Positions 11,943-13,438 of a stretch of DNA of 18,485 bases are shown piece by piece. The stretch lies in IMG/VR virus record IMGVR_UViG_2540341028_000007. One strand, given 5' to 3'. The notes under the pieces were generated by a model. The model did not search any database, was not told the origin of the DNA, and saw only the letters and a program-made list of their open reading frames with translations. This stretch comes from a virus (taxonomy: Duplodnaviria; Heunggongvirae; Uroviricota; Caudoviricetes). The position numbers and the translations under genes were made by a program. Position 1 is the stretch's first letter. Every line of letters begins with the position of its first letter.

Positions 11943-13438
11943 TATGCAGACTCCTCTGAATACTGAAGACGGAACTGATTAACCACGGCAAAGACACGCA
12001 GCTGGTTAACATAGTCAGGCGGGAACAGCGTGTTCAGGCGGTTCGGATCGCTGGCATCACGCTCCACAACCAGGTACTGCTTAAACAGTTCGTAGTTTTC
12101 CACGATCCCCGCACGCTCAAGCTGACGGTAGGTTGCCAGCAGTTCCCCTTTGATCACCGCCGGGGTGACAATCGCCTGACCGGGACCAAAGCGGGTACCG
12201 TCACTGGCAAGCTTGTGACGCCCGTACTTACTGGTAATGACGGATTTCAGTTTGCGCAGTACATACGCGCTGGTATGCAGCGTCTCACTGTCGAGGTAAC
12301 TGTTATCCGCAACCCCGTAAGCGTTTTTCCTGTACGTGGTGACATCACGCTGAATGCGTAGTACCCCGCTTTCGACATACGCCGTTGCCACGCCATGAGA
12401 CAGCAGGGTCTGTTGTTCGGTCATCGTGAACCGTTTCCCCTTCGGCGCAGGCAGCATACCCACCAGCTCACCGGTCTGCGTGGGACGTGCCGGATCGTTG
12501 CGGATAAACACCGCTGCGCGGGCGGTACGGCTTGCCGCCAGCTCGTCGGCAGGCGTCTGGGTCTCTTTTTCGTACCCCGCCAGGGTAATGTGCTGCTGGT
12601 TAAACTGGTCACCTGCGGTCACCAGTTCTGACAGCGTGCCGATCTTTGCCGTATACACATGACCATACAGCTGACGCGCATAGCTCCAGCGACCGCTGGT
12701 ATCGTTCATCTCGGTCACCAGCGTGTTAACGGAGGCCGTGTCGTTGAACGGCAGGCCGATATAATCAAACGGCTCATCCGCCATTGCAGCCACCGCGCCG
12801 GTGAGAACCGGAGCACCCGTTCCGGCGGTACCCGTCGCCACGGCAATCTGTACGCCCGCTGGCAGCACTTCGCCCCCACCAAAGCCGTAGTAATTGAGGC
12901 TGACAGGAATTTCATTCCCACAAAGCCCCTTATGACGCGCGGTCAGTGTGACCACGCCTGCCGAAGATGAAGCCGTAAACGGCAGGGTCGGAACGGCATT
13001 GATGGCATCCTAGATACTGCTGGCAATCATCGTGACGTTATCGCCGTTAGTCACCGGTGCCTGCACGCGGGTACGTCCTACATACACATTCACCGTGCCG
13101 GTTTCGGTTGCCGCCCCGGTCACCGTCAGCGTAACTGTTGCCGCCGCACCTGTGGATTCAGGAACGGCAATCACATACAGCTCGCCAAACGGGTCAGTCT
13201 GGCGATAAGCCTCGACCATACGCGCCAGCTGACTTCCCGCACCACAAATCTGGCGTGCATAGTCTGCCGACGACATCAGTACCAGACTGTTGGCAACAAT
13301 CTCTGCACCGTTATTGGCATGACCAATCAGCAGCGATGCTCCGCTGTCCTGTGCAGTATTCGCCGCCTGGTTATCCATTTCCGCATAAAACAACGGAACC
13401 AGCGTATTCGACGGAATGGTGTTAAAGCTTATCGTCAT
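11942..13438 (-). pseudogene. Tail sheath protein gene (Mu gpL-like) interrupted by a single in-frame TAG
   Basis: ORF-track entries 13010-13438 (142 aa, MTISFNTIPSNTLVPLFYAEMDN...) and 11942-12955 (337 aa, assigned a GTG start) are in the same frame. The 54 nt between them read DAINAVPTLPFTASSSAG with no further stop. The only interruption is the amber codon at 13010-13012 (plus-strand cta). The combined length of about 498 codons fits a Mu-type sheath. Confidence 0.8.

Follow-up and report, generated by a model that had tools for sequence, protein, structure and literature searches.

An amber codon shared across a lineage interrupts the tail sheath gene in the oacC prophage remnant of Shigella flexneri serotype 6

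Introduction

The prophage that carries oacC in Shigella flexneri serotype 6 has been described from strains CDC 796-83 and CCH060 (BMC Microbiol 2014;14:266, PMC4206707). There, oacC is preceded by the insertion sequences (IS) IS629 and IS630, and after it come SfII-like tail genes, head–tail connector genes and one (partial) head gene. The function of oacC was shown experimentally in the same study, and its Supplementary Table S2 gives the name "tail sheath protein" to both SGF_00277 and SGF_00278, of 337 and 142 amino acids (aa), respectively; the word "sheath" is absent from the main text, so that the split is listed there and not discussed. Here, we analyze an 18,485-nt stretch of DNA from a tailed virus (IMG/VR record IMGVR_UViG_2540341028_000007; this whole stretch is referred to as the window), in which the minus strand holds a tail sheath gene interrupted by one in-frame amber codon. 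This DNA is the SfII-like remnant described there with its oacC cargo, and the published annotation already has the sheath gene in two parts: protein accessions from CDC 796-83 and CCH060 match its 142-aa and 337-aa products exactly, and the window is 99.96–99.98% identical to the CCH060 and 64-5500 loci.

The closest relatives of the sheath gene itself are those of phages SfV, SfI, SfII and SfIV and of related Escherichia coli prophages, with which it shares a length of 1497 nt, 96.5–99.9% identity, the same gene order and the same Phage_sheath_1 and Phage_sheath_1C domains. Unlike these genes, which are uninterrupted, the gene in the window has TAG at codon 143.

Results

A single amber codon splits the tail sheath gene

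On the minus strand, positions 13438..11942 translate as a single frame of 498 codons plus a terminal TAA, and the sole internal stop is codon 143 (TAG, 13012..13010), which lies in the context AGC AGT ATC TAG GAT GCC ATC AAT. A preliminary description of the window had placed two sheath pieces in one reading frame with only this TAG between them and had read the adjoining 54 nt as clean coding sequence, and translation bears out both statements. The two minus-strand open reading frames (ORFs) share this frame. One, 13010..13438, starts with ATG and encodes 142 aa; the other, 11942..12955, encodes 337 aa when read from its first GTG. The gap of 54 nt (18 codons) between them encodes DAINAVPTLPFTASSSAG directly past the stop.

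When an intact 498-aa orthologue was compared with the window by tblastn, residues 1–498 were covered with the stop as the lone mismatch. The 142-aa and 337-aa pieces are thus collinear with the N-terminal and C-terminal parts of one protein, which makes this a split gene, not a product of chance juxtaposition. At the nucleotide level, the best E. coli match, prophage 40EC (NZ_CP070920.1), differs from the window at one of 1497 positions, the first base of codon 143, which is CAG (Gln) in 40EC and TAG in the window; the sheath gene of E. coli O157:H7 FRIK944 differs at this base and at one other. The change is a C-to-T transition on the coding strand at window position 13012 (G-to-A on the plus strand). 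A frameshift or indel origin of the split is ruled out by the gap-free alignment to the intact gene, and the earlier proposal of a point nonsense mutation in an otherwise full-length gene of about 498 codons holds. From the candidate ancestral codons named at that time (TGG, CAG or TAC/TAT), alignment to intact Mu-like sheath genes selects CAG for the amber codon at 13010..13012. Codon 143 is CAG in 40EC, O157:H7 FRIK944, SfV and SfI and AAA or AAG (Lys) in SfII, SfIV, SKA5 and E. coli JCKP02, making this a position that varies between Gln and Lys among homologues.

All eight comparators, phages SfI, SfII, SfIV, SfV and SKA5 and the E. coli prophages 40EC, O157:H7 FRIK944 and JCKP02, carry one uninterrupted 498-codon ORF. 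We looked among them for homologues in which one gene ends and another starts at this place and found none, and two genuinely separate genes are ruled out by the single gene in the five phages and three prophages. By its sequence, the sheath locus is a nonsense-mutation pseudogene of the Mu-like sheath family and not a functional member of it.

Predicted consequence for the sheath protein

The translation, Pfam, a match to a solved sheath structure and the annotation of homologues identify the 498-codon locus at 11942..13438 (minus strand) as a Mu-like (gpL/Mup39-type) contractile tail sheath pseudogene. The Pfam domains Phage_sheath_1 (subtilisin-like; E = 3.3e-34) and Phage_sheath_1C (E = 5.4e-22) both lie wholly in the piece downstream of the stop, while the 142-aa piece gave no significant match in the Pfam search. 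With Gln restored at position 143, the protein matches PDB entry 9khy, "Tail sheath protein" (495 aa), over residues 3–490 with E = 3.6e-80. Phages SfV, SfI, SfII, SfIV and SKA5 have near-identical genes with a tail sheath annotation (in SfV, "similar to phage Mu GpL"; in SKA5, "Mup39, L"), and so do more than 1000 complete E. coli genomes have a near-identical sheath gene. The synteny is also that expected for a Mu-like sheath: DUF2635 (gp38-like), sheath, tube, chaperone and tape measure.

Translation of the sheath must end after residue 142, and both Pfam-recognised domains are encoded beyond the stop. The N-terminal piece corresponds to 13438..13010, and the untranslated remainder, codons 144–498, to 13009..11945. 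In contractile sheaths such as those of T4 (gp18), R-pyocins and type VI secretion systems, the conserved C-terminal part forms the inner layer, and N- and C-terminal arms are swapped between subunits. From this architecture, a 142-aa product devoid of the subtilisin-like and C-terminal domains would be unable to polymerise and would form no contractile sheath, and the C-terminal part of the protein would not be made. The first in-frame start past the stop is a GTG at codon 162, preceded by only a weak AGG 1 nt from the start, and its use would cost 18 codons; reinitiation was rejected because the in-frame starts are without a convincing ribosome-binding site.

The amber codon as a possible lineage marker

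The truncated product is widespread. The exact 142-aa product is indexed in 443 blocks of the assembly collection, on about 418 contigs drawn from NCBI, ENA and Logan assemblies of different platforms and years; most of these contigs are 10–20 kb long, the size that an IS-bounded unit has in short-read assemblies. In a cluster look-up, 418 contigs carry the 142-aa product and 419 the 337-aa product, under names from S. flexneri CDC 796-83 and CCH060. A further accession for the 142-aa piece, EJZ68789.1, goes together with that of the S. flexneri 1485-80 capsid protein, EJZ68796.1. Carriers include a draft from 2010–2012 and a complete chromosome, CP026811.1, which a published strain table assigns to S. 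flexneri 64-5500, serotype 6. In a base-by-base comparison, all six loci that we fetched carry the sheath TAG, and their identity to the window is 99.95–99.98%. Among complete E. coli RefSeq genomes, a collection that does not include Shigella, none perfectly matches the 83-nt stretch spanning the TAG. The sheath lesion is fixed across the whole lineage and is not private to the strain of the window. Because it and a second nonsense codon, the ochre in the tail terminator gene described below, are found on about 400 contigs, the sheath TAG could be used to mark the S. flexneri serotype 6 lineage.

Three positions, 9189, 9304 and 11696, are private to the window when compared with the six other serotype 6 loci. 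One change is synonymous and lies in the DNA-circularization gene, one adds a C to a C-run, and one gives a G83S substitution in the tube protein. The C-run change sits in a terminator-like hairpin after the tape-measure gene and, being a homopolymer change, could be an assembly error.

Further decay in the remnant

The tail terminator gene (13619..14161, minus strand) carries the second nonsense codon. Codon 181 has changed from GAA to TAA (13619–13621, with the change at 13621), shortening the product from 186 to 180 aa by its last six residues. This ochre is common to all TAG-bearing loci, GAA is kept in 40EC, O157, SfII and JCKP02, and the 180-aa product occurs on 403 contigs named as Shigella. 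Of the head, only a 3′ fragment of an HK97-type major capsid gene is left (15621..16255, minus strand; about residues 190–401 of 401 by tblastn against 40EC, aligned at 16259..15624), and comparison with the intact 40EC prophage revealed no portal, protease, terminase, lysis or regulatory genes in the window. In place of these genes stands a complete IS3-family element at 16256..17568 (plus strand; IS629, named after PMC4206707), which cuts off the capsid gene and at its other end truncates chbC. Its orfA (16310–16636) and orfB (16633–17523) encode proteins of 108 and 296 aa with the Pfam domains HTH_Tnp_1 and rve. Independently of the sheath lesion, the prophage is dead because this element truncates its head module.

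The rest of the tail module (2884..13592, minus strand) consists of open frames in the order typical of the phage group, with the sheath in second place: DUF2635, tube, chaperone, tape measure, DNA circularization, baseplate hub, gp45-, gp46-, gp47- and gp48-like baseplate proteins, tail fibre and fibre assembly. By tblastn, these products are 99–100% identical to those of the intact E. coli 40EC prophage, except for fibre assembly at about 92%.

To place the sheath lesion among other changes, derived substitutions were polarised with four outgroups over about 12.4 kb. This gave 11 substitutions derived in the Shigella lineage, namely five synonymous, two intergenic, two missense and two nonsense. 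The divergence is, on this count, very young, with a high share of disruptive changes, as would be expected once selection on the tail genes had stopped. Seven of the 11 (4541, 8016, 11276, 13012, 13922, 13937 and 14602) are G-to-A on the plus strand and so C-to-T in the coding sense of the tail operon, a strand-biased spectrum in a sample too small to interpret.

One sister locus (positions 487–1692 and 12447–12911), on a contig from ERR5951538 that resembles S. flexneri 1485-80, bears on the order of events. It has the sheath TAG and the terminator TAA together with an uninterrupted 401-aa capsid gene, and it has a nonsense codon of its own in gp48 (window-equivalent 4402). Because both nonsense codons are found beside an uninterrupted capsid gene, the point lesions apparently preceded the insertion of IS629 into the capsid gene. 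This comparison suggests that the point lesions are the older ones and that decay has been stepwise and may still be continuing.

The cargo gene, insertion elements and flanks

The cargo gene oacC (1456..2604, plus strand) encodes an O-antigen 3/4-O-acetyltransferase (Acyl_transf_3), as assigned from Pfam, the acyltransferase family annotation and PMC4206707. Its stop is TAG (2602–2604), and no other annotated gene of the window has amber as its normal stop.

Upstream lies an IS630-family transposase pseudogene fragment (646..1242, plus strand) with an in-frame TAG at 886–888 and a 5′ end cut at 645/646 by a partial IS629 at 1–645. The preliminary description had noted this lone TAG, and the letters agree (GTT CAC TAG GCC at 880–891 of the plus strand): an intact IS630-family transposase on a Salmonella plasmid, with 90% nucleotide identity, has TAC (Tyr) at this codon, which gives the ancestral state. 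The TAG is also present in E. coli JCKP02, where the IS630 copy occupies the same chromosomal locus beside paoD and is annotated as "frameshifted; internal stop". The IS630 lesion is therefore older than the divergence of JCKP02 from S. flexneri serotype 6 and has no connection with that of the sheath gene.

The partial IS629 that cuts the IS630 copy runs off the edge of the window and is inverted relative to the IS629 at 16256–17568, so that the two inverted copies bracket a segment of 15.6 kb, in which oacC and the tail module lie between the IS630 fragment and the capsid fragment. With this arrangement, which resembles a composite transposon, oacC could be mobilised. To the right, positions 17569–18485 hold the 3′ part of chbC (phosphotransferase system EIIC), truncated by IS629, and then chbA. 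In strain 64-5500, another IS and then the dinB side come after this IS629, and the different right flanks imply an IS629-mediated rearrangement in the strain of the window.

Discussion

Altogether, our results make it very probable that the sheath locus is a true, lineage-fixed pseudogene produced by ordinary decay in a prophage remnant kept for oacC. In our model, one C-to-T change in an ancestor of S. flexneri serotype 6 would have turned the Gln143 codon CAG of the sheath gene of an SfII/SfV-like prophage into TAG. The amber codon would be one of several independent decay events, the others being the truncation of the capsid gene by IS629, with loss of the upstream head, packaging, lysis and regulatory genes, and the ochre in the tail terminator gene, and sister strains carry additional lesions that are private to them. 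The native upstream region of the late operon is gone, replaced by IS629, and the tail operon may not be transcribed at all. The amber codon itself would have no function and would simply mark relaxed selection on the tail genes, while the remnant most likely persists because of its cargo gene oacC.

Two observations weigh against this model. Save for three lesions, every frame of the tail module is open and 99–100% identical to a presumably functional E. coli prophage, which implies that the decay is very young and that residual function of the other tail genes is possible. In addition, our scan for tRNA genes covered the window alone, which leaves a small probability for suppression by a host tRNA.

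The second observation bears on the alternative that survives best, although we consider it very improbable, namely that the amber codon is read through, by a host suppressor tRNA or by programmed readthrough, and that full-length sheath is still made. A change from CAG to TAG is the classic supE-suppressible change, and a supE-type suppressor would reinsert Gln and thus restore the exact wild-type protein. That two of the interrupted genes, the sheath and the IS630 transposase, have TAG might also be taken to favour suppression. However, the lesions are not specific to TAG: the third nonsense lesion, in the tail terminator, is TAA and not amber-suppressible, and the IS630 TAG is older, being common to E. 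coli JCKP02, where the IS630 copy is also frameshifted. We therefore reject a TAG-specific lesion pattern. Moreover, ARAGORN found no tRNA gene in the window, the experimentally functional oacC itself ends in TAG, and the stop is limited to one lineage while the homologues all have a sense codon (CAG, AAA or AAG). The DNA flanking the sheath TAG is identical to that of the intact genes, indicating that no recoding or readthrough signal has evolved, and with head and packaging genes gone there is nothing for a restored sheath to serve.

Even less probable, in our view, is a functional split sheath or domesticated tailocin in which the 142-aa piece and a reinitiated C-terminal piece assemble as two chains in the manner of TssB/TssC. 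Two-chain sheaths do occur in type VI secretion, and a complete-looking tail module without a head, with all other tail frames open, is the layout of an R-type tailocin. Nevertheless, not one of the eight homologues has two genes here, and the only route to a second chain would start at the GTG of codon 162 with its weak AGG 1 nt upstream and the loss of 18 codons. A tailocin is also at odds with the nonsense codons in both sheath and tail terminator, with the replacement of the native region upstream of the late operon by IS629 in a window that is without lysis or regulatory genes, and with the further nonsense codon in baseplate gene gp48 of a sister strain. Taking both alternatives together, there is only a slim chance that serotype 6 strains read through the amber codon, because it is leaky or because a suppressor such as a supE-like glnV allele restores Gln143, or that they use a split sheath, and that the head-less tail module beside oacC still makes a tailocin-like particle.

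Finally, a sequencing or assembly error, with CAG at codon 143 in the true genome, is conceivable to the extent that the window alone shows a 1-bp homopolymer difference at 9304 and two single-nucleotide differences, but this explanation is next to impossible given the identical base in all six fetched loci and the truncated product in 443 blocks from several archives, a complete genome among them.

Of the three origins considered in the preliminary description, a real and recent lesion is the one that stands, the amber change being one of 11 derived substitutions in about 12.4 kb. Sequencing error is contradicted by the number of independent records, and amber suppression found no support in the tRNA content of the window, in the sister TAA lesion or in the unchanged flanks.

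The finding documents one dated step, CAG to TAG at Gln143, in the decay of an oacC-bearing remnant and in itself matters little; the sheath lesion is ordinary and already known. It raises no new question on suppression or tail biology, unless the unlikely suppressor scenario were true. Its interest is that of a small, clear case of a decaying Shigella prophage that has kept its cargo, where the cargo is an O-acetyltransferase that shapes the serotype 6 O-antigen, a vaccine target.

Compared with the published serotype 6 remnant, the strain of the window differs by its three private changes, and it differs from strain 64-5500 in that its right-hand IS629 adjoins a chbC fragment. In a wider comparison, the remnant resembles the accumulation of pseudogenes and the expansion of IS elements in Shigella, with nonsense codons and IS insertions in unselected genes and the cargo gene oacC intact. 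Thus, set against reductive evolution in Shigella, it shows nothing different in kind and is a typical instance of that process.
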